The position numbers and the translations under genes are program-made. Below, one piece after another: positions 3,144-58,179 of a DNA stretch of 64,000 bases. Each line of letters opens with the position of its first letter. The stretch's first letter is position 1. Below the pieces are notes generated by a model. It searched no databases, was not told where the DNA came from, and saw only the letters and a list, made by a program, of their open reading frames with translations. This stretch comes from Nemertoderma westbladi (Eukaryota > Animalia > Xenacoelomorpha): NCBI GenBank assembly GCA_032718475.1, contig JAUCBJ010006805.1, positions 1-64,000 on the forward strand, written 5' to 3'.

Positions 3144-4395
3144 TGTTCGCGCTTTCAGACCTTTGGCAGTTTAACCCGCCAAATTAGGATGTCTTCTAGA
3201 TAATAAATCACCTTTAGTCTATGACAAGTATTTAATTCACTACACTAGTCGAAACCAATCTGTGCGCGATCATTCACCCGCTGGATATACCCGGGAGATT
3301 GGGTTCGACGGCTTAATTTTATTGCTATGTAAGCCTAATGTATTATTCGACTGACAGTATTATATAATCTCTGACAATATTATTCACCTTCGGGAAATAT
3401 TAACAGTTCCTTTAGGACGTGGCGCTCTATCTATATAAACAGAGTTATGACTTAAACTACTCACAACGATATGGCTTAGTTACAATTCACATATATGGCG
3501 CATTCTTTAGGAAATGCTTCGTTATCAGTCTCACTCATACACAATGCTGCACAATACTGCACACTGATCTGCCGATCTTCACTGATTTTAGTCACATATA
3601 AAAGGAACACGGACCGAATCAGGTAGGGTCTATCAAATAACATTAGATTCACTTCAAACCACTCAACATAGGTCGCAATCATTTATCTGTAACCCTTCTC
3701 TCTTACCTTCGGTATATCAAGAATATTGGGTTTTCGGGGTTATTTGTCGTTATTCCAAATATAATAATTCATCAACCATGTTATGAAGAACTGACAGTAA
3801 ATAGCAGTATAACAATATAAAAGTATGCACAGTGTTACACAGTATGCAGTGTATGCAGTACTGCAGTATGCAGTATGCAGATAACGGATATATGTCCTTA
3901 TAATTAAGCCTACTAGTGTAGGGCTAAAGCAGAAAAGCACAAAATACTCCAAAGCCGTTCTTCCTGGCTTAGAATCACCAACAACACTGATAAGAATAAC
4001 TATAAGAATACCAGCTACCCTTATTCCACGAAGCTCCCGTCCAACACAGAGAAAGAGCAGTGAGATAGGAAAATTCAGTTCAGTAGCTCTGTGATAGGTC
4101 AAAATCAAAGCCAACTCAAATCCTATTGGCAGATACAGAAAGCAGGGCTATGGGGCAACGTGGCAATATCAGCCGTTAGCCGTCGTCATGGTAGCGACAC
4201 TGTTTTCAAGAGTATCGAGCTTTTTACGTCACGAAATTACAGATTATGTCCTCTAAAGTACAAATACAGAAGAAATGGCTTTTATGTCCTCCAAAACACC
4301 AGTACAGCAAGGACACGGCCTTTTTATGCCTGGTAAACCAACCACAGAGTACTTTACGGGGATAATAACCAGCTAATTACGCAAAAGCTTTTACA
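3144..4395 (-). repeat. 5' LTR of A1 (~1.25 kb)
   Basis: Ends TGTTCGCGC...GCTTTTACA (TG..CA). Homologous to 22417-25228, 34469-35672 and 61252-62484. Confidence 0.92.
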
Positions 4396-6549: not shown

Positions 6550-7130
6550 AAGAGAATTTGAAATTTTCGAGTGACTATTTTTAAACATAAATAACTTCGG
6601 TTCTACAGAGCCGTTTAATCTGAAACTCTTTTCATTGGATAGAGGATAGATTGTCGTGTGTGAAATAGGATAAAACTTGGGAAAAGACTTATGTGCACTT
6701 AGTGCAAAATGCACTTAAATAGTGAACATTTTTTCGATATTTCAAACACTGTTATTTCCAGTTCTATTCATCGTAGAATGTTATTTTTTGGATTAAAATG
6801 TAGTTTGGAATGATTTCTAACTATAATCGTAACATTTGTTTAACTTTTTATGTCTATAAAGTGATTTAAAAATGTCCATGAATATGGTCCAAAATCGCAA
6901 ATCCAGATTTATTAAATTGGATTTTTGACACTTTTAGCGACTGACACTTGATCATACACCATCGTAGATCGGTAGAGGATAAACATAAGTTTGTTAAATA
7001 AGAGCCACCATTACGATCTGCTAAAGTGCATTTGTACAAATAAGTGTGCAAAAGTGCAAATTTTTTAATAAGGTCAAATTATATAGTATTGGGTTCTTTT
7101 CTTTGCAGATACTTTATTTTCATATTAATA

Positions 7131-7671
7131 TGTTAGCTTATTCAATCCCGCCAACACCCCATAAAGTTATAAGCCGATAAGCAATATTGGGAGCCACGAG
7201 ATTGGGCAATTAACCAACTCGTGCCATCCCAATAAGAGTGGGAAGGAAGCACACAATAGAGGGTCAGGGGCCAAACCCCTAACCCAGAGAGAACAGGTGG
7301 AGTGAACGGGAATACTCCACGGGGCGCCAACAAGGGTATTAACCAATCAGAGGGGGGAATGGCATCGATTGAGTAGCAGTAAGGCCACCGTGCAATATAA
7401 CCAATAACCTATTAATCAGTGATTCAGTTATCTCAGTGCAGCAGTGCTAGCGTAGGGTACAGTCAATTAGTTTAGTTAGGGGATCACGGGACTTTAGTTA
7501 CCGTATCCCGCCTTGTACACATTATACCTATATCTATATCCTATGTCCTATTATTATTATACACCGAACTTCAGAACTCAGTTACCTTTATTTCACCCTT
7601 ATACACGGCGGGGATGCGTGGACTAAATTACCACATCGGATAAATCGGGATCCCTCCTGGATCCCGTCACA
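7131..7671 (+). repeat. 5' LTR of element B
   Basis: Direct repeat of 18840-19380. CCAAT at 7343, TATAA at 7396, initiator-like TTCAGTT at 7423. Confidence 0.95.
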
Positions 7672-7751
7672 GTAACTAAATCCGAGCTGCCGCCCCAGTT
7701 AAACTCTGAGAACTACACTGCTTGCTAGTCGAACTCCACCGAGCAGACGAG

Positions 7752-10056
7752 ATGAGTGAATCGGGCGAGACACCGACGCGGACCCCGGACGAAGATCAAA
7801 CGATCTGCGAGGCCGCGACCAAGCGATACAGGCCCACGACGCCGGAGCCATCGATAACGGGCGAACCGGAAGTCCAGGACGAGGAGGGCCTGGAACCCGA
7901 AGTCGAGCCAAGAGAGAAAGAGAGCGAGATGGAGGGAGATGGAGACGAGTCGACACGAGAGGGAGAACGGCGCGCCGATGTCGCCGGCCAGCTACCGGCC
8001 GAGGGTGACGAGCGGCCCACCGAAACGGCGACGGTGGGGCCGACGGTGCGACGCCGGACGCGAAGAGACGGAGGAGAGATCGGTACCGATGTCGCCGGCC
8101 AGCTACAGGCCGAGGGCGACGGACGGCCCACCGGTACGACGTCGAACCCGGAGGGACGGAGGAGAGGTCGGCGACGAGGACGTCGGGGTTTCTGAGCGAC
8201 TTCGACGGGCCTACAACGCGACCCGGAAGCTGATAAACGACGCCAAGAAGGAAGGGGCGAAGGTAGACGAGGTGAGACTGAGAAAGCGACTAGGTGAGTC
8301 GGATAGACACTTAAATTACCTAATACGTTTTGGGCAGAGAGAACTGGCCGGGGAGAGAGCAGAAAGGATAGCCGGCGAATTGTTTGAACTATGGAAGTGT
8401 GGGAGTATGGAACCTAGTGTAGCGCCAGTGTACATAGGGCCATACTTGGTCGATGCCCGGGGAGTAAAACCAGTGGGTTGGAGGGGACTCGAAGGGGGCG
8501 AATCCGAGGTTAACCCCGAGGATTCGGCCTCGTCGGTCGGAGAAAGCTCCGGGAGGCCGGGGAAAGTTGGTAGGTCGGGAAGGCGGGGGAAGTCCGTCGT
8601 AACCGATAAGTCTGTTACATCCTCCGCGAAAGAAAGAGTGGTGAGAGAGATAGGTGCCGCATACCGCCTCGACGTGGCAGAGCAAGGTCAGAAGGAAATG
8701 GAGGAACGGCTAGAGGAGGGGAGAGCGCGGTTAGCGAGGGAAGCGGCATTGATTAAAGAGAACGGTGAGAGGGTAGAAAGGGCTTTGAGGAGCCTTAGGG
8801 AGAGTGACGAAATAGAGGAAAAGGAGTGTAGAGAGCGTGAGGCTAGGGAGGAAAGGGAACGCAGAGAGCGTGAGGCAAGGGAGGACGAGGAACGCGAGGA
8901 ACGTGAGACAAAAAGGGACGAGGAACGCGAGGAACGTGAGGCAAGAAGGGAAAAGGAACGCAAGGAATATGAGGCAAGAAGGGAAAAGGAACGCAAAGAA
9001 CGTGAGGCGAGATGAAGGGAGAGCGCTAGGAGTGTAGTAGAGTCGGCCAGACGGGACAGCCAGGAAAGTGAGGAGAGAGGGGCAAAGGCTGAGCGAGAGT
9101 TAAGGGAATTAGAGAAACGCCAAGGTGTATCGGCAAAAAATAAGATTAGACGGGCGCACGAGCTGGAATTGGTCCGAGTGTTGCCGTCTGAAAGCGGGGC
9201 CGGCTCGAGTATTTTTGAGGAGCCAGGAGCCGTAGACACGTTCATTAACACCCCACTGACAGGGACCGCACGACAGACCCAAAACTGGTGTAACCGTACG
9301 GGCGAGGGGGGTAATAATAATAATGGTACAGTAGACGTTGTTGATATTAATAGTACCGTATGGGATAACACTAATCAAACCTTTATTGCAGGAAATACTT
9401 TGCCTAGTGGTAGTAATTTAAATTTAAATCAGAACAATCCCAATACTAATGTAGAAAATAATCCTAATGTTGATGTAGTTACGCAAAATAATTCAAATAA
9501 TCAAAATAATAATCCGAATTCGGACCTACAAAATAACTTAAATAACGCAATTACACAGAATAATTCGAATAATTTAAATAATGATCTCAGCCCGAATTTA
9601 CAAAATAATTCAGATAACGTAGTCGCGCAGAATAATGCAAATGGTTTTGTTTCAAACGAGCAAATTGATTCCGTTTCTAATATGGGTGCTATTAATGTAA
9701 ACACGTCGGGCCTACATAACCAGGCGGAAGAGAGCCTGGTAGGCCACGTAGTTAGTAGACAGGGAGCAGAGGGCCTGGTAGGCCACGTAGTTAGTAGACA
9801 GGGAGCAGAGGGCCTGGTAGGCCACGTAGTTAGTAGACAGGGAGCAGAGGGCCTGGCAGGCCACGTAGTTGGTAGGCAGGGAGTAGAGGGTCTGGTAGGC
9901 CATGCAATAACAGAGGGAGAGGCGAGGGTGAACAGACCCGACTGTGATAGGGTTGATGTGTCGACTAGAGAGGTATATAATAGCGGGGAAAGAGGTAGCG
10001 AAGTTAGATGTAGCGAGTGGGGGGGGGGCTACGAGGGCCCCATAACAGAGAGTTAG
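7752..10056 (+). pseudogene. gag: N-terminal low-complexity/coiled-coil part of B gag (disrupted)
   Basis: ATG at 7752, apparent frameshift at ~8130, single in-frame TGA at 9013-9015. Contains an E/R-rich coiled coil, an Asn-rich tract and 39-bp repeats (GLVGHVVSRQGAE, ~9730-9903). Confidence 0.65.
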
Positions 10057-13000
10057 CGGCGAGAAGGGGGGGGCAGAGAGTGTCCCACAGCCGTCAGCAG
10101 ATAATGCGAGGGCCGAAATAGGTAAACCGCAACAACCAGCGACGGAAAGTAATAGGGGGATTACGAGTATCCCCAGCGACGTGCGACCGGGCAAGGAAAG
10201 ACAGGTTGACGTTGCGGGAGGGCGGACGAAGCGTCGAGCCCAATCAGAGGAGGAAAGAAGAACAGTGGGGTTTAACCGGGAGGTCGACGAGAGATCTCGC
10301 GAGCGGGAATATTCCACTGATACGAGAAGAAAGGAAGACAGTAGTAGAAGTATCGCCGCAAACGATAGAAGAGCGAGGACGGACAGCGAGCCGTCGGTAG
10401 TCGAGATGAGAACGGAGAGTCAGTGGGGTCGGACTCCGGGAGATTGCCGTCGCCCCGGAGAGATGCGACCCGGCGAGGCGCATTGCACGCCGAGAGAGGG
10501 GTACGCGATGTACCAGAACGAGGATGAGAACAGTAGAGAGGGGGGTCGGAGAGAAACTTTCCGACGGAATGTACCTACCGGACGAGATTACGGTAGCCGC
10601 AGGGAGGATTATTCGAGAAGAATAAACTTCGATCCCGAACAACACATGCAGACTGTAGGACATACTAGAGGCCTTACTGCACATACCGTAGGCCATACTG
10701 AGAGAGGCAATGTAGGCGATAGGATAGCGTGGACAACGGGATTAAACCCGGAAGTCGCGGAATACATACCGGCGGGTAGGCCAGAAGCTGATAGGCCTAT
10801 ACCGGTACCAGCACTGCAGTATGACTACAGCATGCAGGGACATAACATATACCCAGGGGAGGGGGGAATTATTGCGGATAGGTGCATGGGCCCCAACATA
10901 TTAACATCAACCCCAGTACCAGACATACCGGTGGGGGGGGGACAGGGTGACATTCCCCCATCACAATATCAACAATATACCCCGATGGTAGCAAGAACAA
11001 CGAGACCCTTGGACGAAAACAGATCGTGTGACACAGATATATGGAGGGGGCCGCTACCCCCAATGACATACCCAAGCCAGAGAAAGTCAAGAAATAGGAC
11101 AGACGGAACGCACCAGACAGGGGAAACTATACAGCACCCGTCGAATCCATTGGAAGCGCAGGCGATAGGGATGGCCACGTTGATCGATGCTTTGAAAACG
11201 AGGATCGAGTTACCACCCGTGGAACCATTCAAGTTCGACGGGAGTAGGCCGGAAGAATATTTACAATTTCGGCGAATGTATAGTAACGAAATACTAACAA
11301 AAAACTTGACGCAGGCGGAGTGCCTAAAGTATCTACAAGTGTACACGGGAGGCCCAGCATACGATATCGTGAGGCAATACCAAGGAATAGAGGGCGGCTT
11401 CACGACAGCATGGCGGGCACTGGATAGGGAATACGGGCACCCGGCCAAGATCATCAGGCAGACGCTGAGAGGCATAACATCGGGTGGCCTACAGGATAAC
11501 CCCGTTAGCATTAAGACGTTTGCTAACAAAGTCGAGAAGGCGCTGATCGTGCTGAAGACGCTAGACGCGCCATACGAGCTCAACGCATCCAATAACATCA
11601 CCACGATAGCGCAGGCACTACCGAGCTGGCTGCGCAACAAATGGAGGAAGATCGCTTTCTCCACTCGAGACAAGAAGGGTGCGGAACCGGGTTTAGAAGA
11701 AATGTCAAACTTCTTAAATTACGAGGCCGAACTAATAACGGACCCAGTCTATAGTGAAGACAGCCTGGGAAAGGGACCAAAGACAGACTACCATAGACCA
11801 AAACCAGAGCACAACACATCGAACGCGTTACCGAGACTCAGGCAATCATTGCCATATGCAGCGACGCAGGGGACTGCAAGTCCACAGACAAACGAAGATA
11901 AGACAACATCAAGGGACGGACAGGGGAACAATAACAACATGAATAAACATAACCCCAGTACGTCCAGTAGGCCAAACCCAGTCAATAAGAATAGTAGGGA
12001 CTTTGGTACGAATATAACTGCGATACGCAATGCATTGTATAAAGAGGGCTACGACCCAAAGAGCAAATGCCAGTTACACGCAAATGCGCTTCATAAAACC
12101 ATGAATTGCAGGTACTGGCAGGCGCTACCGAGGCAAGACCAGATAGATTACGCGTCGTGCAATAAAATCTGCTCGCGATGTGTGAAGAGTGGACACAAGG
12201 CCAGGGAATGCCAAGAGAAGCCGGTCAAGTTTGGCCAAAGGAGAGGCCAAACGATGGCAACGAGCACGGTAGGGGCGAAGAAAACAGGCACAGTGCTACT
12301 TGGAGTAGTACCAGTACGAGTGATCGGGGAAGGCAATCGATCAGTAACAACACTAATGCTGGTTGATAGTGGAGCTGCCTTCACATTAGTTGAGGAATGG
12401 GTAGCCGAAGAAATAGGGTTGAGAACGAGACCAAGCAGGATGGCGGTGACAACCATCTCTAGCAAAGACGAGATCCTAGAGATGAGGACAGGACGGTGCG
12501 CAATTGCAGCAGTGGCACCAGGATGCGATTATGGGGCAACCATCGACCCCATCCAAGTAATAGAGTCAATTAACATCAATGCCAGGCGGCCGACCAACAT
12601 CGAGGTCGAGCAATACAAATTCCTGGACAACATTGACTTCTCAATCCCAGACGTGGACGTTAGGAAGGTATCCATCATAGTAGGCATGGACTGCCCAACG
12701 GCCCACGAGAGAAAGCAAACGGTCTTCGGCGAAGACAAGCAGAGCGACCCGGTGGCCATATTAACACCATTCGGGTGGACACTGACAGGCCCAATTAAGA
12801 GTAATATACCATTCCATGTGTCCGAGAGTTCAGGATGCATGGTGCCAGGAACTGACGAGATAGAGGAGAGGCCAGAGATGGGCAATAGTGGTAGACAGCT
12901 AGAAGTAGAAGCAACACCAAGAGAGTGGGCGGAGGAGAATGGTATGGATGCAGAAGATCTAGAGACGATGGGTTGGAATAAGGGTCCCAGCAAGTATCGG

Positions 13001-13666
13001 TATGGAGATGGGGAGGAGCGGACGGTGGAGTGTCGGGAGGACAAACCGGAGAAGTGTCCGGTGGAGTGTCCAGAGGAGCGCCCGGAAGAGACGCCGGTCC
13101 GGTTGAGAGGCATACCGACAAGGGGGAAGCCGAGTAAGAATCCAAGATGGAAAGGGAGAAGATGTGAGACGATCAAACCAGGGGCAGAGAAGCCCATGAA
13201 TAAACATATGGTGGACAAAGGAGGCGGGAGAGTAGGAGGCGTGCTGCGTACGCACGCGGAACTGACAGAGTGCGAGGGGGCATTACATGGGCAGACATCG
13301 TGTATACCGAAGGACGAACGGGGGTCGTTGAAGCCTTTAATGCCAGCACACATATTAAGGGGGAGGCCAACAGAGGTGGCATCTAAGATTAAGGAGAAGA
13401 ACAGGGGCGGCATTATACCGCCGGGTGACACGTTGAAGGGTGGCACTTTGCCGCCAAGGGACGACCACGAGATCAGAAACATAAATAGAAGACAGCATTT
13501 CCAAAAACAGGAGAAAAGACCACCTATCGAATTGACAAGGAGAGCGGAGCGAAGAATTAGAGAACCTATAGGGGGGCAGTGGCAGAGTTGCCTGCTGGAG
13601 GAATCACCCCTTGGGTCGCTGAGTTGTCCAACAGGTTGGACTGGGATGGAAGAGTTAGATCCGTAA
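10046..13666 (+). CDS. BEL/Pao Gag core plus aspartic protease; RT, RNase H and integrase absent
   Basis: LPPVEPFKFDG..EEYLQF (DUF1759-type capsid region), CSRCVKSGHKAREC knuckle, LVDSGAAFTLV protease, AILTPFGWTLTGP. PLMPAHILRG resembles the end of BEL integrase. No YxDD motif. The frame is open from 10046. Confidence 0.88.
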   Translation, partial: QRVSGEKGGAESVPQPSADNARAEIGKPQQPATESNRGITSIPSDVRPGKERQVDVAGGRTKRRAQSEEERRTVGFNREVDERSREREYSTDTRRKEDSSRSIAANDRRARTDSEPSVVEMRTESQWGRTPGDCRRPGEMRPGEAHCTPREGYAMYQNEDENSREGGRRETFRRNVPTGRDYGSRREDYSRRINFDPEQHMQTVGHTRGLTAHTVGHTERGNVGDRIAWTTGLNPEVAEYIPAGRPEADRPIPVPALQYDYSMQGHNIYPGEGGIIADRCMGPNILTSTPVPDIPVGGGQGDIPPSQYQQYTPMVARTTRPLDENRSCDTDIWRGPLPPMTYPSQRKSRNRTDGTHQTGETIQHPSNPLEAQAIGMATLIDALKTRIELPPVEPFKFDGSRPEEYLQFRRMYSNEILTKNLTQAECLKYLQVYTGGPAYDIVRQYQGIEGGFTTAWRALDREYGHPAKIIRQTLRGITSGGLQDNPVSIKTFANKVEKALIVLKTLDAPYELNASNNITTIAQALPSWLRNKWRKIAFSTRDKKGAEPGLEEMSNFLNYEAELITDPVYSEDSLGKGPKTDYHRPKPEHNTSNALPRLRQSLPYAATQGTASPQTNEDKTTSRDGQGNNNNMNKHNPSTSSRPNPVNKNSRDFGTNITAIRNALYKEGYDPKSKCQLHANALHKTMNCRYWQALPRQDQIDYASCNKICSRCVKSGHKARECQEKPVKFGQRRGQTMATSTVGAKKTGTVLLGVVPVRVIGEGNRSVTTLMLVDSGAAFTLVEEWVAEEIGLRTRPSRMAVTTISSKDEILEMRTGRCAIAAVAPGCDYGATIDPIQVIESININARRPTNIEVEQYKFLDNIDFSIPDVDVRKVSIIVGMDCPTAHERKQTVFGEDKQSDPVAILTPFGWTLTGPIKSNIPFHVSESSGCMVPGTDEIEERPEMGNSGRQLEVEATPREWAEENGMDAEDLETMGWNKGPSKYRYGDGEERTVECREDKPEKCPVECPEERPEETPVRLRGIPTRGKPSKNPRWKGRRCETIKPGAEKPMNKHMVDKGGGRVGGVLRTHAELTECEGALHGQTSCIPKDERGSLKPLMPAHILRGRPTEVASKIKEKNRGGIIPPGDTLKGGTLPPRDDHEIRNINRRQHFQKQEKRPPIELTRRAERRIREPIGGQWQSCLLEESPLGSLSCPTGWTGMEELDP

Positions 13667-13821
13667 AAGGTGCGGGCAGAGGTGTTACCTGTCTTCTAGA
13701 AGGGGCACCTTAAATTGGAGTTAGAGTGGAGTTTAGTCGTCCAAGTTTTGGACTGAAGGGGGTGGGATTGAGGGCGAGACGCCCTTCCCACACAAATAAA
13801 ATAAAATAAAATAAAAATAAA

Positions 13822-15096
13822 AGTTAGTTAGTTAGTAGGTACGTAGTACCTAGAGTTAGTTAGTTAGTAGGTACATAGTACCTAGAGTTAGTTAGTTAGT
13901 AGGTACGTAGTACCTAGAGTTAGTTAGTTAGTAGGTACGTAGTACCTAGAGTTAGTTAGTTAGTAGGTACGTAGTACCTAGAGTTAGTTAGTTAGTAGGT
14001 ACGTAGTACCTAGAGTTAGTTAGTTAGTAGGTACGTAGTACCTAGAGTTAGTTAGTTAGTAGGTACGTAGTACCTAGAGTTAGTTAGTTAGTAGGTACGT
14101 AGTACCTAGAGTTAGTTAGTTAGTAGGTACGTAGTACCTAGAGTTAGTTAGTTAGTAGGTACGTAGTACCTAGAGTTAGTTAGTTAGTAGGTACGTAGTA
14201 CCTAGAGTTAGTTAGTTAGTAGGTACGTAGTACCTAGAGTTAGTTAGTTAGTTAGAGGGTACGTAGTACCGTTAGTTAGAGTTAGAGTTAGAGGGTACGT
14301 AGTACCGATAATTAGAGAGTTAGAGGGTACGTAGTACCAATAGTTAGTTAGAGTTAGAGGGTACGTAGTACCGATAGTTAGAGAGTTAGTAGGTACGTAG
14401 TACCTAGTTAGAGTTAGAGTTAGAGGGTACGTAGTACCGATAGTTAGAGAGTTAGAGGGTACGTAGTACCAATAGTTAGTTAGAGTTAGAGGGTACGTAG
14501 TACCGATAGTTAGAGAGTTAGTAGGTACGTAGTACCTAGTTAGAGTTAGAGGGTACGTAGTACCGATAGTTAGAGAGTTAGTAGGTACGTAGTACCTAGT
14601 TAGAGTTAGAGTTAGAGGGTACGTAGTACCAATAGTTAGTTAGAGTTAGAGGGTACGTAGTACCGATAGTTAGAGAGTTAGAGGGTACGTAGTACCAATA
14701 GTTAGTTAGAGTTAGAGGGTACGTAGTACCGATAGTTAGAGAGTTAGTAGGTACGTAGTACCTAGTTAGAGTTAGAGTTAGAGGGTACGTAGTACCGATA
14801 GTTAGAGAGTTAGAGGGTACGTAGTACCAATAGTTAGTTAGAGTTAGAGGGTACGTAGTACCGATAGTTAGAGAGTTAGTAGGTACGTAGTACCTAGTTA
14901 GAGTTAGAGGGTACGTAGTACCGATAGTTAGAGAGTTAGTAGGTACGTAGTACCTAGTTAGAGTTAGAGTTAGAGGGTACGTAGTACCAATAGTTAGTTA
15001 GAGTTAGTAGGTACGTAGTACCTAGTTAGAGTTAGAGTTAGTAGGTACGTGGTACCTAGTTAGAGTTAGAGTTAGGGGGTACGTAGTACCATTAGT
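13822..15096 (+). repeat. Tandem array of ~39 units (28-36 bp) with core GGTAC-GTA-GTACC and TTAG/TTAGAG linkers
   Basis: 13 near-identical 32-bp units followed by ~26 units in a higher-order pattern (hand count). Confidence 0.95.
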
Positions 15097-15594
15097 TAGA
15101 GAGAGAGAGTGAGAGATAAAAGGGGTAAATAGGATATAGATATTAGTTAGCAGTAAGTAGAGTTAGTAGCGAGAGGGGGGCATATGAGTACAGCTGGATA
15201 AATCGTGTGGCCACACGACGCATACTGCTGTACTGCATGGGCCCACAGAGTAGGCCAGAATATGGATCAGAGAATAGAATAAATCCATAGGCAGTAGTAG
15301 GTAGTAGGACAGTAGGATCAAAACAAACAAATAAATAGAATAGGGCTAAAAATCGAAAAATAGTGGCAACACAAGGAAAGTCGTTCTAGAACATAATAAA
15401 AGTAACGGACGGAAATTGTAAATTAGGCTGATTTACTAGCTCCGAAATTAATTAGGTTAAATTAAGCTTGAAAGGCGCAATTAAGTAGAAAGTAGGCCAT
15501 TATCGAACTGTACGAAACATCTTAAATACTTCACTCATCTGTATTGCGCCTTGGTAAGGCACCACCCTGCAGGTGAGCGAGTGTAGTGTTCGGA

Positions 15595-16998
15595 ATGGCG
15601 AGTAAGCTGATCAGGAAGAGAAAGGCGGAGTCAGGAGGAAAAGAAATATTGGTGGATTTCACCGAAAGACACCCGGAAGAGAAGACAAGAGGATACTACG
15701 AGCGGTTGGAAAGGGGTCACGCGGCACGAGCGCTGCAGGATCACTTCCGGGAGGCGCACGGACAGCGGTTGGTCGGGACCTACGGGACCCCGTCACTAGA
15801 CAACGCGATCTTCCAACACTTCCACTACGTGGTGAAAGGGGACGAAGCGAAGTTCGGGATTCCGAAATATCCGAGGGAATCACCGAGGAAGGACTGGAAA
15901 AGATTCATAGAGTCCGTCAACAGAGGAGGATATATGATCCTAGATGACGAGGGAACCGTGGAGGACGAAGCGGGTTCGAGACGAGGAACGGCAGGGTCGG
16001 CCAGGACCATACTCCTACATTTGGCCGCGCCGAATGGGGACATCTTCTTATTCGACCTAGGGACGTATAGGAAGAAGGACGGGCCGAAATTAGACCGGTT
16101 GCCGAAAGCGGTACAAGTCTTAGTAAGAGAGAAGTCGACGACGAAAGTGGGATCGGCGATTCGCGAGGACGCGGAGAGGATCATCGGTCCGGACGCCACC
16201 AACCTCCTGGATATGCAGAAAGTCTTTATGGCTATGACGGCACCGGATGGATTGGGGGTGGTCGAGAACTCAGGCCAATGCGGGGCGGTGGCGATGGGCC
16301 AATTATTGGGGCTCGTATGCCACAAACCAATGGATTGGGGGAAGTTTAGGGAAGAATACGGAGCAGAACTAGCGAACTCGCTGAAGTGGGGAGCGAGACC
16401 GGGAAAGCAGGAGGTATATCAGTTTCGCAGAGGAGCGATAAAGGTATATCAGAAGCGATATATCCTGCAGGAGGACTGGATGATGATAAGTTTGCTTAAC
16501 TTATTCATGACCGTAGTTATCGAAAGGGAACCAGGGGCATTTCTGTTATCGGGATCACCCCTAAGCTACAGGAGAGCCTTTAAAGTGGCCTTTGACGGTC
16601 TGGCAGACCACCCGGGGCTGAAGGGCGAGTCGGTGTACTACAACAGCCGACATCTGGTAGACGGGGAGACAGATACACCGTATCAGAGATGGGAGCAGCT
16701 AGAGGCGGACAGACGAGAAGCAAAGCGACTGGAAGAAGTCGCTAGACGGGAGAGGATAGAAGCAGAGGAGAGGGAAGAGGAGGCCAGGGCACAGAGTTAC
16801 GGCTTCGGGGAGCAGGCGGGCCTAGACGAACTTCATTGGACTTCGTCAGGGAGTTCGGGGGAGTCTCTAGGGCGAGAATTGGGATGGACGGTGGGATCGC
16901 CGAAACAGTCGACGTCGGGGTTGCAAACGATGCCCATACCAGCGGGCGCCGAGGGCGACCAACCGCCAAGGAAGTTAAGGGAGCTAGAGGGATGGTGA
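15595..16998 (+). CDS. DnaQ-like DEDDy 3'-5' exonuclease domain protein (WRN-exo/EXD/RNase D-like) carried by element B
   Basis: ExoI-like ILDDEG; LLHLAAPNGDIFLFDL; LPKAVQVLVREKSTTKVGSAIRED (ExoII-like); LLDMQ; QLLGLVCHKP; YQKRYILQED (ExoIII-like). Confidence 0.7.
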   Translation: MASKLIRKRKAESGGKEILVDFTERHPEEKTRGYYERLERGHAARALQDHFREAHGQRLVGTYGTPSLDNAIFQHFHYVVKGDEAKFGIPKYPRESPRKDWKRFIESVNRGGYMILDDEGTVEDEAGSRRGTAGSARTILLHLAAPNGDIFLFDLGTYRKKDGPKLDRLPKAVQVLVREKSTTKVGSAIREDAERIIGPDATNLLDMQKVFMAMTAPDGLGVVENSGQCGAVAMGQLLGLVCHKPMDWGKFREEYGAELANSLKWGARPGKQEVYQFRRGAIKVYQKRYILQEDWMMISLLNLFMTVVIEREPGAFLLSGSPLSYRRAFKVAFDGLADHPGLKGESVYYNSRHLVDGETDTPYQRWEQLEADRREAKRLEEVARRERIEAEEREEEARAQSYGFGEQAGLDELHWTSSGSSGESLGRELGWTVGSPKQSTSGLQTMPIPAGAEGDQPPRKLRELEGW

Positions 16999-18129
16999 GC
17001 TACGGGCGAGAGCCAAGGTGGGAAGGGACATAGTGGATCCATCGGGATACCGGGATTGGAGACACTACCGGAAGAGGAGGACGACGACGACGAATTCGGA
17101 GAGATGCCGCCCATCGAGAGGATAGGCCACTCGGACACGGACTGGGTTGGCGGAAGGGTGGTGACGGCCAGTGGGGCGAGGGCCTTCTGGAACAGATCCG
17201 GCAAGCGGACCTGGGTGCACGAGGAGCCGGTGATGGATTTCGCGGGGAGCACCATCAGGTTGGGCGAGCAACCGGGGACGGCACCACGGATAGTATTCGG
17301 GGAGACGATGCCCGAGAGGGGCGGAGAGATCGACGTAAACAGGGAGAGCAACGTAGAGAAGTTCGCCTACCAGCGACTCCATAGACCGCGGAGATCGCTT
17401 GGGACGAAGGACGAGGTGGGACGGGAGACATTGGTACTCGGCTGCGACTACTGTGGGAGACAGACCCATCGGGAAAGCAGCTGCCTGTACCGGTTCCAAC
17501 GGGGAACCTTTTGTCTCTACTGTAGAGAACCAAGTCACAGGATGGGGGCGTGTCCACGGTTGCATAACCGATGTCCAAAGTGCCACTTTCGGGGGCACTA
17601 CGGACGCGAGTGCGACTGGATGAGCGACGAGGAGAAGTTCACGAGGTTCGAGGAGTGGGCCGACGTCGGGGCCATGACGCGCCAGCGCATGAAGGCCCAA
17701 GAGTTCAAGTGGGGTTTCTTCCTTATAAACCAGGAGACCCACATGGAAATCATAAAGCGAAGGTTACCGTTTACCTATCAAGAGGTAGCTACGGCGGCAT
17801 CGTTCGCCGGAGTTATAAACACGCAACGGTACCTGGACAGGTGGACACCAGAGAACCTGAGGGAGTTTAGGGATTTCTTGGCGGAACACGTACCAAAGGC
17901 AATGAAAATGATCCTATGGGACGCCACACGAGGGAGACAACCAGGCCATTCTGAGGGGCCACCGGCGAAGCGGTATCGGGCTTTAATAACACCAGCGCCC
18001 AAGGAGCCGACAACCGGGATCAGCAAGGAAGTGGCAGCGAAGGTCCGGAAGCAGAAAGCGGATGATGCCAGAGGAGCGGTGATAACCAAGAAACGGGCCA
18101 GGGAAGAGGACGTGAGGAGGTACAGATGA
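16999..18129 (+). CDS. Triple CCHC zinc-knuckle protein; same frame as the exonuclease ORF, separated by one TGA
   Basis: CDYCGRQTHRESSC, CLYCREPSHRMGAC, CPKCHFRGHYGREC, followed by a basic NLS-like C-terminus (PPAKRYR, KKRAR). Confidence 0.8.
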   Translation, partial: ATGESQGGKGHSGSIGIPGLETLPEEEDDDDEFGEMPPIERIGHSDTDWVGGRVVTASGARAFWNRSGKRTWVHEEPVMDFAGSTIRLGEQPGTAPRIVFGETMPERGGEIDVNRESNVEKFAYQRLHRPRRSLGTKDEVGRETLVLGCDYCGRQTHRESSCLYRFQRGTFCLYCREPSHRMGACPRLHNRCPKCHFRGHYGRECDWMSDEEKFTRFEEWADVGAMTRQRMKAQEFKWGFFLINQETHMEIIKRRLPFTYQEVATAASFAGVINTQRYLDRWTPENLREFRDFLAEHVPKAMKMILWDATRGRQPGHSEGPPAKRYRALITPAPKEPTTGISKEVAAKVRKQKADDARGAVITKKRAREEDVRRYR

Positions 18130-18801
18130 GTTCCCGGAGACGAGGGAATGAGACTGAGACTGGGAAGTGGTGCGCCTGGAAGGCGCCGCATGTAACGCAC
18201 GAACTATTAAGTATAAATTTAATTAATGCAAATAATCATATAAGTGCAATTTGTATGTACGTACGTAGTGATTAGCAGTAAAATACATACGTTTGGAGTA
18301 AGTACTATAGTCATACAACCTTTCTCAACTAGCTAGTGGGACTGGGGGGAATAACTGACTATGGCACTATGGACGAGACAACTGACAATTTCACACTTCT
18401 CGAGTGCGACGGCACGAGAGGGGGGGAGGTTCGTCAGGAGAGATAAAACAGTCAAAGTGGAGTTGAGGATCGGAATAAGAGTGCGAAGTGCGGAGAGAGT
18501 GCGAACGCAATTCTAGTGTGGGGGGGGGGAGAATGAGAGGCTGAGTAAGGGACGAGGAGGTCCGGGGGTATGAGAAAGTTAGGGTGAGAGTGAAGGTGAG
18601 ATAGGGCGAAAATGTTGGGGAAACAAAGGTCGTGTGAAGAGGTGAGCGCGATCGGCCCGACATGAGACGCCAGGCACACAGGGTAGCGTTATCATACCCA
18701 TAGGGGGCGGCCTGGAAAGCCGGCTCCTAGAGAAAAGAATTCCACCCCACACCCGATATTAGATCGGGATCCAGCGGGATTGTAACGCACTTTTTTGGTT
18801 G

Positions 18802-18839
18802 ATGCTATCTTCTTACCGGGAAGATAGCATGGGGGGGAG
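18802..18839 (+). other. 11-bp hairpin followed by the polypurine tract of element B
   Basis: ATGCTATCTTC-N7-GAAGATAGCAT, then GGGGGGGAG abutting the 3' LTR. Confidence 0.85.
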
Positions 18840-19380
18840 TGTTAGCTTATTCAATCCCGCCAACACCCCATAAAGTTATAAGCCGATAAGCAATATTGGG
18901 AGCCACGAGATTGGGCAATTAACCAACTCGTGCCATCCCAATAAGAGTGGGAAGGAAGCACACAATAGAGGGTCAGGGGCCAAACCCCTAACCCAGAGAG
19001 AACAGGTGGAGTGAACGGGAATACTCCACGGGGCGCCAACAAGGGTATTAACCAATCAGAGGGGGGAATGGCATCGATTGAGTAGCAGTAAGGCCACCGT
19101 GCAATATAACCAATAACCTATTAATCAGTGATTCAGTTATCTCAGTGCAGCAGTGCTAGCGTAGGGTACAGTCAATTAGTTTAGTTAGGGGATCACGGGA
19201 CTTTAGTTACCGTATCCCGCCTTGTACACATTATACCTATATCTATATCCTATGTCCTATTATTATTATACACCGAACTTCAGAACTCAGTTACCTTTAT
19301 TTCACCCTTATACACGGCGGGGACGCGTGGACTAAATTACCACATCGGATAAATCGGGATCCCTCCTGGATCCCGTCACA
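18840..19380 (+). repeat. 3' LTR of element B
   Basis: Direct repeat of 7131-7671. Confidence 0.95.
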
Positions 19381-20308
19381 TAATATGTTGTTTGAACCTT
19401 ACTGAGCGCATTAGGGAATATGCGTACAAATAACCGGCCCTTATGAGGCTTCGATTGGGTAAATTAATAAAACATAAGGTTGTATAGTATAATATTCTAA
19501 AAACCAGTGTGATATTAAATGCACTTTAAATAATAAATAGAAATCAAATAACAATTGGACCACACAATTAAAAACTCGCACAATTTTGTACTTATTATAT
19601 CGCTTCAAATTAATTTAACAGTGGATATTTGTGGGAAGGGGGAAGTTACAGTGTGCATTCGGGGGAAGTTTGGTGAACTGCATTTATGCAGTGAATCCAA
19701 ACTTCCCCCTTTGATATATCATATACTTAAGACATGCTAGGGTGACGGGAAAATATTTGTTACTGTCACACTTTGCTTCCATTTATCCTATCCTTTATTA
19801 TTACCCCAGTCAGATAAGAGATAATAAATCAGTAAAAACTAAACTAAACTGTCTTTCATGCAAACAAATTTCTAACTAAAGACGGGTGAATGACCATGAC
19901 CAAGAAATAATTTTAAATATAATTGTATATCAACTATTTGGGGAGGCTTCCAAGTTAAACCCGAAAACAATTATTTTGTTACATATCTAGTAAATAACGT
20001 TGTATGTTCTTCTTCCTCTCATAATAAAATATATATGAAATATCTCTGATCGCTGTGCCCTGAACATTTCACAACCAAAATGTTTCAGTGTGAAAAGTGT
20101 AGGCCTACCACACCCCGCCCAAACAGCCGCAAACGCATAGCCAACAAATTTATCAAAAGTTTACATACATGTTGTGTTCATGACGAGATGAGTGAAAATT
20201 GATCGCGTAATATAAACTAAAAAATTGAGAGTCGGGCCTGGCTCTTCTCCACTTTCTTACCCAATGGAAATGTTGTTGTTATAATCTAACATTGGGGCGG
20301 CTTTCTCT

Positions 20309-21934
20309 CGGTCTTTCTGACTGTTCATTGGCTAACCCAGACAAGGATCAAAGACACGACTTTAGTGTAAATCTATTAATCGGTTCAGACTTCTATTGGG
20401 ACATTGTAACAGGAAAGACATTCCGTTGTTGGTTGGCTACTTTCTGGGAAAGTGCAACAAAGTTACGAGTTCTCAAATTATGACAACAATTTGCAAGACA
20501 ACACGTGTATGCTAATCAGTTCCACTTGTCAGAAGCTGAAAACGACAATTTTCAAGACATACTCAAAGGCTTTTGGGCAGTAGAAAGTTTGGGTAACGAG
20601 CAAATGGAAAGTGATGACACGTTTATACCAGTTCTAAACATAATGTTTAAAAGTAACGGACATTATTCTGTAAGTTTGCCTTGGAAATTAAATCCGACAA
20701 ATTTGACTGACCATTATTCATTGTGTTATAAACAATTATACTCTTTAATCCGCCGTTTACAAAAAACTGGTTTGCTTGTAAAATACGACAGTGTAATCCG
20801 GGATCATATAGCAAAGGGGTATATTGAACCAGTAAGTTGTGATCAAACGGGTTCAGTAATTCATTACATTCCCCATCATGGTGTAGTACGGGAGGAACGG
20901 GAATCCACTAAGCTTAGGGTGGTATTCAATGCCTCAGCACGCGCACATTGCAAAGATATATCATTAAATGAATGCCTTTTAAAAGGACCAAATCTCATCC
21001 CACATTTATTAGATGTGTTACTAGGTTTTAGGGATAAACGAATAGCTATAACAGCAGATATTGAACGGGCATTCTTACAATGCGAAATTAATGATTCTGA
21101 CAGGGATTGCCTTCGATTTCTGTGGGTACCATCATTAGATAATATCAATATAGATAATTTAGTTATTCAAGGGTACAGGTACACACGAGCTCTGTTTGGA
21201 TTGATATGCTCACCAAAAATACTTGCAGAGACTTTATCTCATCATCTAGAATTGGAAAAGAAGAAAACTGTAACCAGTCTCAACTGGTTACTGTCAAGAA
21301 GTTACAGAAGTTGTATGTAGACGACTTAGGAACAGGAGTAAATACCGTAGAGGAAGGAGTACAATTCATGAAAGAGGCCTGCTCAATCATGAAATCAGGT
21401 GGATTTAACATACGTAGAAGGGTTTCTAACTCATTACAATTACAGACAGAATTTGATAAAGAAACACTCAACAAATGTAACCAAGTTTTGGACATAACAA
21501 AATTTCAGGAGGAAGATCAGACATACGCAAAGTCTTCTCTGTACCTGCCGCTGGTTCAACCAGCCCAGGTGAAACGAATCTTAGGACAATGCTGGCATGT
21601 GGAAAACGACACATTTGGGTTTGACGTGACGTCAGTATACGACTATGTAAAATTGTTACCCAAGAATAAAAGAGCAGTGTTACAGTTATCAGCACGCCTA
21701 TATGACCCATTGGGCGCTCTGATACCATTCACAAGCCAAATGAAAGCCGAATTCCAAACATTATGTAAAACAACAAAAAATTGGAATGAACCACTTTCGT
21801 TGGCTTTAATTGAAAAATGGCAAAGATGGGTTGACAGTTTATTATCCCTCAATAAAATTTCATTTCCGAGATGCGTGTTTAACAAAACAAATACTATTAA
21901 AGATTTTGAATTGCATGGTTTTTCAGATGCCAGC
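20309..21934 (+). pseudogene. pol: Host BEL/Pao element C pol: reverse transcriptase and start of RNase H (frameshifted, truncated)
   Basis: HYIPHHGVVREERESTKLRVVFNASA, SLNECLLKGPNL, ADIERAFLQ, LYVDD, RLYDPLG, LHGFSDAS. Frameshifts at ~20430 and ~21260. Confidence 0.92.
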
Positions 21935-22947
21935 AGTAGTAGAGGAAGAGGGTCCCCCCACCCACTCCTCCCTAGCTTGGGCTTTGGGCGATATCTCGGA
22001 GGACTATTAAAAATGCCAAATTCCGGTGCTAAATTGCGGTGTTTAATTGGCCAGTTGCCACCATCAGTATTGATTCGCGTCGTTGCCATCAACCAATCAT
22101 CGATATTCACCTACGCGTAGCCTAACCTCGCGATGCCCGCCTTACTCGACAGCTGTTACCACCCATCAGTATTGATTCGCGTCGTTGCATCAACCAATCG
22201 TTGCATATTCATCTTCGCGTAACCTAATTTCACGATGCATGGCTAGCCCCCACATACCCAACCCATCGCTACTCGACTGCTGTTACCAACCAACTAACCA
22301 ACCAAACAACCAACCAACTGCCATGCTTGCCTAGCCCTCCGGTTACTCCCCTTTTCCCCACGCTACCGCATACTGTATACGATGACAACGATAGAGTCAG
22401 TCACGGAGGACGTGGCTGTTCGCGCTTTCAGACCTTTGGCAGTTTAACCCACCAAATTAAGATGTCTTCTAGATATTAAATCAGTTTTTAGTCTATGACA
22501 AGTATTAGATTCACTACACTAGTCGAAACCAATCCGTGCGCGACCATTCACCCGCTGGATATTCCCGGGAGATTGGGTTCGACGGTTTAATTTTATTGCT
22601 ATGTAAGCCTAATGTATTATTCGACTGACAGTATTATATAATCTCTGACAATATTATTTACCTTCGGGAATATTAACAGTTCCTTTAGGACGTGGCACTT
22701 TATCTACATAAACAGAGTTATGACTTAAACTACTCACAACGATATGGCTTAATTATAATTCACATATATGGCGCATTCTTTAGGAATGCTTCTTTAACAG
22801 ACTCACTCATACACAATGCTGCACAATACTGCACACTAATCTACCGATCTTCACTGATTTTAGTCACATATAAAAGGAACACAGACTGACTCATGTAGGG
22901 TCTATCAAATAACATTAGATTCACTTCAAACCACTTTAACATAAGTC

Positions 22948-24544
22948 TACTACTACTACTACTAGGATCGGCATGCTGCATTGCAGCTGCATTTTTAAGA
23001 ATGCTGTGCCGGCTTGTCAACAAAATTGCACCGCCACAACTCCCTATCACCCATGACATTTGCTAGATCATCCGCATCTTTAAGGCCAGTGTCCATTAAT
23101 ATGCGTCTCAAGAAAGTCATGGGCTGTCCACTATGCTTATTCACTCCATGAGGCTGCCAAAGTACAAGATTATGCACTGGCTGGTCCTCACGGCGAAAGC
23201 AATGTCCTGCAAAGCGGAGGCGATTTTGTTCTAGTGTCAAGCTTGGGGAAACCAATGAGACACCTCCAATGTTATATAGTGTCTGGTTGGAGATGTGTGC
23301 ATTGTACTTGACACAATGAACCCGGCGTAGCATTCTTGTGAATGTGCCATCCAGAGATTTGGTGTCCTCAGCAGTTAGAGCCCAGCATGGACTCCCGTAG
23401 AGGAGTACTGGAACTACTGCTGCTCTAAATAATCGGACCTTAAGTTTCCGATTAATTCTCGGTGACTTCCAAATCCTGGAAAGCCTATTCAAGGCTGCCC
23501 ATGCCTTTCCCTTACGTATTCGAAGGTCCTCACCTGACTTCCGGATCCATGATCCCAGGTAACAGAAGTCGTCGACATGCTCAAGCATACCATCCTTTGA
23601 GCTTATGCTCATCCGATCAGAGACTTGCTGAGGACTTTCAAAGTTAACTGTCAGAATTTTGGTCTTTCTGGAGTTAATAAAAAGACCAACACTAGAAGCA
23701 GCATGTTCTAATGAGCTGAGGAGCCGTTGGGCTCCCTCTAATGATTCTGAGAGTACTCCTAAGTCATCAGCAAAGTCTAGATCAGTTAGGTACTTGGCAG
23801 GATTTCCTCGACTTCTGGAGCCAGTAGGTGGAGTTATCATCACCCCATCATCATTATGATGATCTAAGGACATGCGTAGAACATAGTCAACCACAATAAT
23901 GAATAAGAATGGTGCAAGTGTGTCTCCTTGGAGGACGCCCCATAACACTTCGAATGGTTCTGTGTCACCGTCAACAGTAGACACAAATGTTGTCGAACCA
24001 TCGTATACTGATCTGATTGCTGCAATAATTTCATCAGGAATCCCATATAATGAAAGTATGCTGAACATACGTGAGCGAGAGACTGAATCAAAGGCCTTGA
24101 AGAAGTCAACAAAGATAACAGCCAGATGCCTGTCTTTCTTTTTTGATAATTCTTCAATTATCCTTCTAAGTGCCAAAATGGGCTCCATGGTCCCACGACC
24201 TTTACGGAACCCATTCTGATTTCCACGGAGCAGTCTCTCAATGGGATCCCTGATGCGATTTAATAGAATCCTATTGTATAGCTTTGCAGCAATTGAGATC
24301 AATGAGATTCCCCGAAAAGAACCATAGAGTGTTAGGTTGCCCTTCTTGGGAACTGGCACCAACTTATTTGTTTTCATTTCTTGTGGGACTCTTGTTGTAC
24401 GGTACATGTCTACTATGATGGGATAGATAAGCTTTAAACACTCAGGTATTTTAAAGACCTCAGGGGGAACACCATCTACTCCACTGGCACGATTGGTCTT
24501 AATGCTCTTTGCAGCAGCCTTCACTTCTGCAAAGGAGATATAAG
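22948..24544 (-). mobile_element. 5'-truncated RTE-clade non-LTR retrotransposon (family 1)
   Basis: 11-bp TSD TAACATAAGTC at 22937-22947 and 24545-24555. (TAG)n 3' tail. RT ORF present. Confidence 0.93.
22995..24539 (-). CDS. RTE reverse transcriptase (partial, open frame)
   Basis: KASGVDG-like motif, QNGFRKGRGT, FVDFFKAFDSV, GVLQGDTLAPFLF, LDFADD, FCYLGS, RLRFAGHCFR. Confidence 0.92.
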   Translation of the reverse strand: MSFAEVKAAAKSIKTNRASGVDGVPPEVFKIPECLKLIYPIIVDMYRTTRVPQEMKTNKLVPVPKKGNLTLYGSFRGISLISIAAKLYNRILLNRIRDPIERLLRGNQNGFRKGRGTMEPILALRRIIEELSKKKDRHLAVIFVDFFKAFDSVSRSRMFSILSLYGIPDEIIAAIRSVYDGSTTFVSTVDGDTEPFEVLWGVLQGDTLAPFLFIIVVDYVLRMSLDHHNDDGVMITPPTGSRSRGNPAKYLTDLDFADDLGVLSESLEGAQRLLSSLEHAASSVGLFINSRKTKILTVNFESPQQVSDRMSISSKDGMLEHVDDFCYLGSWIRKSGEDLRIRKGKAWAALNRLSRIWKSPRINRKLKVRLFRAAVVPVLLYGSPCWALTAEDTKSLDGTFTRMLRRVHCVKYNAHISNQTLYNIGGVSLVSPSLTLEQNRLRFAGHCFRREDQPVHNLVLWQPHGVNKHSGQPMTFLRRILMDTGLKDADDLANVMGDRELWRCNFVDKPAQHS

Positions 24545-25239
24545 TAACATAAGTCACAATCGTTTATCTTTAACCTTTCTCTCTTACCTTCGGTATATCA
24601 AGAATATTGGGTGTCGGGGTTATTTCTCGTTATTCCAATATAATAATTCATCAACAAATATAATGAATAACCGACAACAAATAGCAGTATAAAACAACAA
24701 CTGAACACTGATTGTTATGAGTTTGCAATGTTTCAGCAGTCAGTATGTATGATTAGTTAGCAGTGATTCCATGAGTTAAAGGATATATGCCCTTTATAAT
24801 TAAACCTACTAGTGTAAGACTAAAAACTAAAACACGGAGGTGCCAAAGCCGGTTCTTAGGCTCTGGGCAAAAACATAACACTGAACTACTGAGTTTCTGT
24901 ATATACCTCCAACACAAAGACAACAAACGCTCTGATTGGTCAACCTGAACAACGAGAGAACAGAGAAACAAAGAAACGTCGACGTGGCAATATCAGCTGC
25001 TAGCTGTCGTCATGGTAGCGACACTGTTTTCAAGAGTATCGAGCTTTTACGTCACGGAATTACGGATTATGTCCTCTAAAGTACAAATACAGAAGAAATA
25101 GCTCTTATGTCCGCTAAAACACCAGTACAGCAAGGACACGGCCTTTTTATGCCTGGTAAACCAACTACAGAGTACTTTACGGGAAAAATAAGGAAAAATA
25201 ACCGGACAATTCAGTAAAAGCTTTTACACCGCTCCCAGA

Positions 25240-34468: not shown

Positions 34469-35672
34469 TGTTCGCGCTTTCAGACCTTTGGCAGTTTAAC
34501 CCACCAAATTAAGATGTCTTCTAGATATTAAATCAGTTTTTAGTCTATGACAAGTATTAGATTCACTACACTAGTCGAAACCAATCCGTGCGCGACCATT
34601 CACCCGCTGGATATTCCCGGGAGATTGGGTTCGACGGTTTAATTTTATTGCTATGTAAGCCTAATGTATTATTCGACTGACAGTATTATATAATCTCTGA
34701 CAATATTATTTACCTTCGGGAATATTAACAGTTCCTTTAGGACGTGGCACTTTATCTACATAAACAGAGTTATGACTTAAACTACTCACAACGATATGGC
34801 TTAATTATAATTCACATATATGGCGCATTCTTTAGGAATGCTTCTTTAACAGACTCACTCATACACAATGCTGCACAATACTGCACACTAATCTGCCGAT
34901 CTTCACTGATTTTAGTCACATATAAAAGGAACACAGACTGACTCATGTAGGGTCTATCAAATAACATTAGATTCACTTCAAACCACTTTAACATAAGTCA
35001 CAATCGTTTATCTGTAACCTTTCTCTCTTACCTTCGGTATATCAAGAATATTGGGTGTCGGGGTTATTTCTCGTTATTCCAATATAATAATTCATCAACA
35101 AATATAATGAATAACCGACAACAAATAGCAGTATAAAACAACAACTGAACACTGATTGTTATGAGTTTGCAATGTTTCAGCAGTCAGTATGTATGATCAG
35201 TTAGCAGTGATTCCATGAGTTAAAGGATATATGCCCTTTATAATTAAACCTACTAGTGTAAGACTAAAAACTAAAACACGGAGGTGCCAAAGCCGGTTCT
35301 TAGGCTCTGGGCAAAAACATAACACTGAACTACTGAGTTTCTGTATATACCTCCAACACAAAGACAACAAACGCTCTGATTGGTCAACCTGAACAACGAG
35401 AGAACAGAGAAACAAAGAAACGTCGACGTGGCAATATCAGCTGCTAGCTGTCGTCATGGTAGCGACACTGTTTTCAAGAGTATCGAGCTTTTACGTCACG
35501 GAATTACGGATTATGTCCTCTAAAGTACAAATACAGAAGAAATAGCTCTTATGTCCGCTAAAACACCAGTACAGCAAGGACACGGCCTTTTTATGCCTGG
35601 TAAACCAACTACAGAGTACTTTACGGGAAAAATAAGGAAAAATAACCGGACAATTCAGTAAAAGCTTTTACA
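34469..35672 (-). repeat. 5' LTR of A2
   Basis: TG..CA ends. On the minus strand: CCAAT at 35379-35383, TATATA at 35344-35349, TCAGT at 35324-35328. Confidence 0.95.
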
Positions 35673-35965
35673 GTGGCCATCTACGCGCACCATGCATATA
35701 CCACGCCGTTATATTATATTATATCGTTTGCCAACTCATCGATTTACGCAGAACCCAATAATTTTCAATTGTACTGTATTTCCCTACCAACTAATCAACC
35801 AACCAATAAACCGAATTTAGGCTATTTCTCAGTTTAAGACCTGTATTATTTTTGAAAATATCTTATATATAATCTCTTGCTTTAATCACAATTAATCATT
35901 TATAATGGTTTTAGTTTAAAAGTTTTTACTTTGTTTGTTTGATTTACAATACAATAAATTAAATA

Positions 35966-36409
35966 ATGTCTTCTGATTCCGATATGGTTATGCCTGTAGT
36001 AAGGCATTCATTTTTTGCAGAAGATGGTGAAGCCTATATTGTTATTGATTATACAATTTACTGTCGAGGAGATGATAAATATAAAATCGATTTTTCTGAA
36101 AAAGCTAGGAAAGTTTTAAGCTCCATTGATATTGATGCTTCTGAAAATAGCATTCATCTCTTAGATTACAACCTAAAAGTTGATCATGTGGGAAAATTAA
36201 TCAACATCTTACTATTATCCATGATAGAGGGGTTAATTGTTATTACACAATACAACGAAGCTGGTGAAAAGTTTGAAATACGGCTAAATCGGCATAACCC
36301 CTACGAAATTATGACATTCTTTATTGTAATGATTTCAAAAGAATCCTTTGTCGAAACTGAAGAATCAACAGATAATGTGGAATTTGTTGAAAATATCATT
36401 GATTCTTGA
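35966..36409 (+). CDS. Hypothetical 147-aa Polinton-associated protein (copy 1)
   Basis: Clean ATG-to-stop ORF in AT-rich context, upstream of the RING and ATPase genes. Confidence 0.6.
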   Translation: MSSDSDMVMPVVRHSFFAEDGEAYIVIDYTIYCRGDDKYKIDFSEKARKVLSSIDIDASENSIHLLDYNLKVDHVGKLINILLLSMIEGLIVITQYNEAGEKFEIRLNRHNPYEIMTFFIVMISKESFVETEESTDNVEFVENIIDS

Positions 36410-36589
36410 CTTTTCCCCCTATATTATAAATATTTTATGATTATTTTTAAAATTTTGATCTTTTTAATTATGAAAAAAAATCAAATTTTAAATAATCGAA
36501 AATTGTAGTAGTATTTGTATATACAGTATATCAGATTTGTTTGTTGTGTATTGAGGTAATTATTTTCAATTTACTTTAAAATTTGGAAA

Positions 36590-57905: not shown

Positions 57906-57954
57906 TGGGGACCTGATCGCGTCCAGTCCCCCCCCCCCCCCCCCCCCCCTATTA

Positions 57955-58139: not shown

Positions 58140-58179
58140 ATAAATAAAAAATAATTCCTTGACCATCTCATTATCTATT

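Follow-up and report, generated by a model that had tools for sequence, protein, structure and literature searches.

BEL/Pao LTR retrotransposons (Belpaoviridae) are described as replicating with a host tRNA; the ICTV profile gives them an 18-nt primer binding site (PBS) for tRNA-Arg or tRNA-Gly and calls their replication poorly understood (PMC8742986). Members primed by tRNAs have been described (PMC8742986 and PMC4580426). Self-priming, in which the PBS is complementary to RNA encoded by the element's own LTR, is known from Tf1, Tf2 and Tj1 of the Tf1/sushi group of Ty3/gypsy chromoviruses (PMC7175516, PMC4600332 and 10.1101/2022.12.06.519325). The Tf1 primer is the first 11 nt of the RNA, pairs over 11 nt, and has its end made by RNase H. 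Self-priming has likewise been inferred from LTR-PBS complementarity alone for the plant lineages TAR (Ty1/copia) and Tcn1 (Ty3/gypsy), which belong to other superfamilies and another kingdom than the element studied here, and for which PMC6317226 gives a rule of 10 bp. In fungal copia elements of the GalEa type, which have a Conserved Hairpin Site and no tRNA PBS, the LTR is followed directly by a short, conserved segment whose complement is found further downstream, in the internal region (PMC5445492).

No report of self-priming or of splice-junction primers in BEL/Pao elements was found in a literature search that lay mostly outside subscription journals, Repbase Reports and bioRxiv supplements. 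This negative result spans PMC6934838, PMC7472051, PMC5443660, PMC3286476, PMC6238403 and PMC13524379. Term searches found no match in PMC554778 and PMC2774666, and four short PBS-region motifs were absent from seven supplementary files of PMC13524379, which is a weak test.

Here we describe a BEL/Pao element of Nemertoderma westbladi, termed B, at 7131–19380 (+) of the window, the 64-kb stretch of DNA analysed. The element is recognized by an LTR pair, a polypurine tract, a target site duplication (TSD) and a Gag/protease frame. The 541-bp LTRs (TG...CA) occupy 7131–7671 and 18840–19380, the ends of the first being set by the second copy, and are identical at 540 of 541 positions; the sole difference is T at 7615 and C at 19324. 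The TSD copies TAATA lie at 7126–7130 and 19381–19385, and the polypurine tract at 18832–18839 is flush with the 3' LTR. With this LTR identity and its TSD, B is a young element, recently copied with its present PBS.

The open frame at 10046–13666 (+) encodes a BEL/Pao-type Gag (DUF1759, E-value 8e-11) and an aspartic protease (Asp_protease_2). Three full BEL/Pao polyproteins match B solely at 11066–12805, with 21–25% identity and E-values down to 1e-34. Reverse transcriptase (RT), RNase H and integrase (order PR-RT-RH-IN) were absent from B, with no Pfam or tblastn match beyond position 12805, and a tandem array of a 32-bp unit (13822–15090, about 1.27 kb) occupies the expected place of pol. 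B thus resembles the Belpaoviridae of the ICTV in its TG..CA LTRs, polypurine tract, 5-bp TSD, DUF1759 Gag and aspartic protease, and differs from them in having no tRNA PBS, RT, RNase H or integrase. Since these enzymes are missing, B is a BEL/Pao derivative of the non-autonomous kind and needs a helper for its movement. A broken BEL/Pao pol fragment without a recognized LTR lies at 20484–22120 (+); it covers the RT to RNase H region and a Peptidase_A17 match, and its link to B's helper is a candidate one. The window also contains a protein kinase fragment at 53857–54522 (-) and an imperfect palindrome of 190 bp at 57952–58143.

The initial annotation of this locus held that the PBS position of B is complementary to B's own LTR, flush with the LTR end and devoid of a TGG. 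These readings are correct: positions 7672–7680 are the exact reverse complement of 7493–7501 at offset 0, and the first TGG past the LTR is at 7891, some 220 nt further on. Two other TGG triplets, at 7619 and 7658, were rejected as PBS candidates as both are inside the LTR. The putative self-primer segment spans 7489–7501 (+), where 7493–7501 is perfect and 7489–7491 would extend the pairing over a bulged C7492 to the far end of the PBS position (7681–7683 of 7672–7683), giving a predicted primer 3' end at C7501 in the context TTAC^C. In contrast to GalEa, the partner segment of B is in the LTR. No Rfam family matched positions 7100–7800 up to an E-value of 1, so there is no ribozyme or tRNA-like insert there, and no tRNA genes were found in the 64-kb window.

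Taken by itself, the 9-bp match is modest evidence, as had been conceded from the start: among the 18 perfect duplexes examined, that of B ranks last in both length (9 nt) and stability (-7.3 kcal/mol), and a competing fold is predicted. With the extension the duplex energy is -12.3 kcal/mol, within a range of -11.2 to -24.5 kcal/mol. The nine perfect nucleotides are one short of the 10-bp rule set out in PMC6317226, against which B offers 9 nt plus three over a bulge; they are also fewer than the 11 nt reported for Tf1. Of the dinucleotide shuffles, 71 of 20000 made from B's LTR reached 9 nt at offset 0 (p=0.0036), and complementarity of at least 9 nt was found at 28 of 11138 internal positions of B.

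The secondary structure proposed around the match is also predicted by folding, with varying probability. In the fold of 7426–7760, the PBS helix has a probability of 0.50–0.57 and the 3-bp extension over C7492 a pair probability of about 0.4; across 28 choices of fragment, folded at two temperatures, the helix probability varied from 0.0 to 0.72. The bases just past the primer (7502–7512) are predicted to form a stem with 7607–7618, the arm containing the only LTR difference, with a core probability of 0.84–0.88, and the GGGATCC/GGATCCC hairpin is predicted as 8 bp at 7646–7666, 5 nt before the LTR end, with a probability of 0.86–0.94. A competing helix between 7493–7498 and 7622–7627 is predicted at about 0.3; the latter segment is also a possible weak variant of a poly(A) signal. 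Whole-fold stability was discarded as evidence for the PBS pairing, as the leader folds no more stably than its shuffles (z -0.57 and -1.17; 26 of 100 and 28 of 200 fold as well).

CCAAT, TATA and TCAGT-type motifs are generic promoter elements. In the LTR of B they comprise a CCAAT-box-like motif at 7342–7352, a TATA-like element at 7394–7400 and an initiator-like TCAGTT at 7424–7429. The TATA-like element, whose function is presumed, is about 30 nt upstream of a start predicted near 7426 from a consensus match only; further such matches occur at 7416 and 7433. The predicted start would be about 67 nt before position 7493, and the primer would be about 76 nt long. No canonical poly(A) signal was found in B; only variants are present near the LTR end, at 7622 and 7639, both downstream of the primer segment. 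The initial annotation had pointed to a CCAAT/TATA/TCAGT layout shared by B and a second element, family A. The motifs are indeed present in both (in A at 35384, 35349 and 35336/35328, respectively), but the layout is absent from a diverged A copy and from all 15 relatives scored, and we rejected it as evidence for a common lineage.

Family A is represented on the minus strand by an element at 35672–22417 with 1204-bp LTRs (5' LTR at 35672–34469), the TSD GCCAC, a gag split over two frames and no RT. Its primer segment (35220–35231) is complementary over 12 nt to the PBS position 34468–34457 at offset 0. A diverged copy, with its LTR at 4395–3144 (-), has a primer segment at 3881–3896 complementary over 16 nt to 3143–3128. 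Within the 12 nt shared by these copies there are two primer differences, and both are matched by compensatory changes in the PBS. The two families had been called unrelated. This holds for their LTRs, which have no DNA similarity, but not for the elements as a whole: both belong to BEL/Pao, with 23% identity over 331 aa of Gag-protease, and because of this kinship A and B are not independent origins of the self-complementary PBS.

Several further features accompany family A. In both copies, a 7-nt segment just past the primer can pair just past the PBS (approximately 35211–35204 with 34445–34439, and 3875–3869 with 3119–3113); the letters of these pairings differ between copies, and they resemble one arm of the Tf1 pretzel. 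A third, more diverged A-type LTR at 62484–61252 (-) is a 3' LTR with no PBS in the window; its primer-homologous segment has different letters, so that a PBS matching these would be expected at another place in the genome. A LINE-like RT insertion at approximately 22948–24545 breaks up the 3' LTR of the A element. Part of its 5' LTR is included in a 6858-bp tandem duplication with 99.9% identity (35237–42061 and 42095–48919), which also carries a 211-aa P-loop ATPase-like frame with weak Pox_A32/AAA matches below the cut-off.

No close relative of B was identified among 2824 representatives at E-values up to 0.001, the best 150 of which have 23–35% protein identity, with 30–35% for those at the top, and none of 293 candidate stretches in viral contigs was a BEL/Pao relative. 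The survey of distant relatives was built on 86 BEL/Pao loci obtained by alignment of the three polyproteins, 6 of them located in genome contigs and 80 being the best of 300 confirmed loci in metagenome contigs; it samples proteins that match motifs of these polyproteins, and not every clade of BEL/Pao is represented in it. None of the 86 loci has a DNA match to B's LTR. Some of them (L001, L002, L004, L005 and others) are in contigs filed as bacterial MAGs, probably as a result of host contamination. Candidate ends in both LTR copies were found for 22 loci and 15 of these were kept; family duplicates (L022, L060, L064, L072) and loci with unclear ends (L018, L019, L066) were dropped. Three families with ends fixed across loci (L015/L018, L020/L025, L019/L081) were added, giving a total of 18. 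Another 13 loci with a 5' LTR only, of which eight gave at least 10 nt and five none, were left out of the counts because the LTR end had been chosen by the match itself.

In the strict test, which considers contiguous matches and matches spliced at consensus sites only, 14 of the 18 families have 10–15 nt of own-LTR complementarity at the PBS position, versus 7 of 420 mismatched PBS/LTR pairs reaching at least 10 nt, 6 of the 7 being between families with near-identical PBS. The match is contiguous in two families and crosses a predicted splice junction with the consensus GT(A/G)AG..(C/T)AG in 12 (L007, L012, L020/L025, L023, L029, L044, L046, L052, L055, L063, L075 and L078). The 5' LTR copy of L075 lacks exactly the predicted 117-nt intron, with one mismatch in 214 nt, in a contig that may be derived from RNA or DNA. 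The families below 10 nt are L015 (9 nt), L059 (6), L019 (5) and L079 (4). L015 reaches 14 nt once its GTAGG donor is allowed; the LTR end of L059 is probably miscalled and the donor of L079 looks decayed, and both are still counted as misses. Pairing in the relatives starts 0–5 nt from the LTR end, and L055, like B, is flush with it (offset 0) and starts with GT. The predicted primer end is highly conserved in the 15 relatives with a match: A at -2 and C/T at -1 are present in all 15 and C at +1 in 13, and the TTAC^C of B is the same as in L075. No aberrant long primer copies were seen in the 86 loci.

The initial annotation had suggested that the trait is lineage-wide and that BEL/Pao libraries be surveyed for it. 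The distribution is in fact wider than was proposed, although most families, unlike B, form the complementary segment via a splice junction. Canonical tRNA sites, which would have spoken against that suggestion, are scarce, with a TGG at most 5 nt from the LTR end in one of the 18 families (L015/L018), and B's nearest placed relatives show the trait. In that one family (L018:82–100 with L015:6700–7110) the PBS starts with TGG and would be annotated as a tRNA site, and it pairs from offset 2 over 14 nt with its own junction; AATAAA is inside the primer.

A Gag-protease tree was built from 28 of 53 rows, after removal of near-duplicates and of those lacking a PBS call. B is placed on a long branch with P0002, L007, L009 and L010 (95/94). 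Junction primers are present in three of these neighbours: L007 and L010 (which has its LTR in common with L012), where the ends are fixed, and L009, where the end is inferred. Four changes are needed on the tree for the contiguous primer forms, which is not below the number for shuffled labels; intron-free primers are thus scattered over it. B is an intron-free form of a design that most of the sampled relatives make by splicing. Its PBS/LTR match is contiguous and not of the splice-junction type; the best splice-made primer for B (11 nt, offset 1, donor GTGAAC at 7302) was rejected, its donor being non-consensus and its end context wrong. A TTTAG within 7493–7501 looks like the 3' splice sites found ahead of the primer ends of relatives; a GTAAG is at 7379, 119 nt upstream of this TTTAG. 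B may pair in the unspliced form of its RNA, because splicing between these two sites would destroy the PBS match. The self-complementary PBS position of B is a real feature, modest as a single case and convincing through its context in family A and the relatives. The pattern in the BEL/Pao lineage is strong and apparently unpublished.

We consider it probable that B primes minus-strand synthesis with its own leader segment 7493–7501 in place of a tRNA, an interpretation drawn by analogy with Tf1. The alternative that the 9-nt match is a chance product or a decayed relic, with some host RNA such as a tRNA half as the actual primer, is unlikely. When offsets of 0–3 are allowed, 1.3% of the shuffles of B's LTR do reach 9 nt, and 18 of the 420 mismatched pairs reached at least 9 nt in a permissive search (offsets 0–5, spliced matches allowed); however, the offset in B is exactly 0, and 9 nt together with the A(C/T)^C end context of the relatives occur at no more than 2 of the 11129 positions inside B. 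Priming by tRNAs is what has been described for BEL/Pao elements (PMC8742986; PMC4580426), and half-tRNA priming works without a TGG (PMC6317226), but the PBS of every relative differs and tracks its own LTR, a pattern that a single host RNA could not produce. Against both versions stand the nearest placed relatives of B, which carry the trait, though the placement rests on a long branch.

Alternatively, the pairing could be real but structural, with 7622–7627 and the PBS competing in a switch for translation, dimerization or packaging, and the segment neither cut nor used for priming. We regard this as quite unlikely, since the pairing always ends 0–5 nt from the LTR end, which is the required starting place of minus-strand synthesis, its end has the conserved A(C/T)^C context, no other primer site is present, and the exon-junction complementarity suggests that the PBS was copied from spliced RNA. 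The two alternative helices predicted for 7493–7498 would fit such a switch, as would the absence from B of the Tf1 pretzel arms, the cut of the segment being a prediction. A search of the 45 nt after the predicted cut in B gave no arms of the three-duplex Tf1 type, with 273 of 300 and 250 of 300 shuffles being as good; a 22-nt downstream pretzel-type arm beats 97% of shuffles in just 3 of 18 elements (A', L012 and L075). Priming by the 3' end of the transcript itself, created by cleavage at a poly(A) site whose place in the 3' LTR corresponds to 7501, is very unlikely. It would need no new nuclease, and B lacks a canonical poly(A) signal that would place the end somewhere else, but both variants near its LTR end are downstream of the segment. 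In family A a TATAAA is found 23 nt before the primer end, but the A[A/T]TAAA signal is 570 nt downstream of it. Among the 15 relatives A[A/T]TAAA is 17–128 nt downstream of the primer end in nine, absent in five and inside the primer in one (the AATAAA of L015), and in the scanned part none has it 10–40 nt upstream. Moreover, such a transcript would have no R region in common with the 5' end beyond the primer end, unless strong-stop synthesis crosses the primer segment.

Under the self-priming that we favour, transcription would start near 7426, as predicted from the consensus, and the stem 7502–7512/7607–7618 together with the hairpin 7646–7666 would fold 7489–7501 onto 7672–7683. The leader RNA would then be cut between C7501 and C7502, by analogy with Tf1, probably by the RNase H of the helper's reverse transcriptase (cf. 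Tf1 in PMC7175516). The 3'-OH at C7501 would be extended into U5, starting at the LTR end, and the strong-stop DNA, presumably spanning 7671 back to 7502, would jump to the 3' LTR copy, which would make 7502 the first position of the working R region and leave the 3' LTR to supply the primer segment again. In retroviruses, plus-strand synthesis copies the primer and thereby renews the PBS. In B such copying would rewrite the PBS and keep it complementary to the primer, which would explain the matched changes in family A and the exon-exon junction complements in the relatives. Alternatively, B could start just before 7489–7493 and use a short, Tf1-like primer; the spliced relatives would have to start upstream of their donor.

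By this reasoning B would work like Tf1 but is not a member of the Tf1/sushi group, whose proteins are of the Ty3/gypsy type, in contrast to the BEL/Pao-type Gag of B. Compared with Tf1, the predicted end of B's primer is at about nt 75 of the RNA and not after the first 11 nt, B depends on a helper for RT and RNase H, and B's relatives build their primer across a splice junction. We lean, with some reserve, towards a broader scenario in which a large marine-invertebrate-type branch of BEL/Pao dropped tRNA priming entirely in favour of an internal leader cut at A(C/T)^C, yielding a long capped primer that the host's splicing puts together in most families, and in which the intron-free, non-autonomous B is mobilized in trans by the same machinery.

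If true, this would be a second, independent origin of self-priming, in a whole superfamily of animal LTR elements, and this form of priming would use an internal cut site and, for most of the families sampled, depend on splicing to make the primer. The sequence rule predicts the primer end, the intron and the LTR end for elements that are missed by PBS-based annotation, and it makes a directly testable prediction for B, namely RNA ends at 7501/7502. Retrotransposition in this lineage would be tied to host RNA processing, and the target site of tRNA fragments would be removed.
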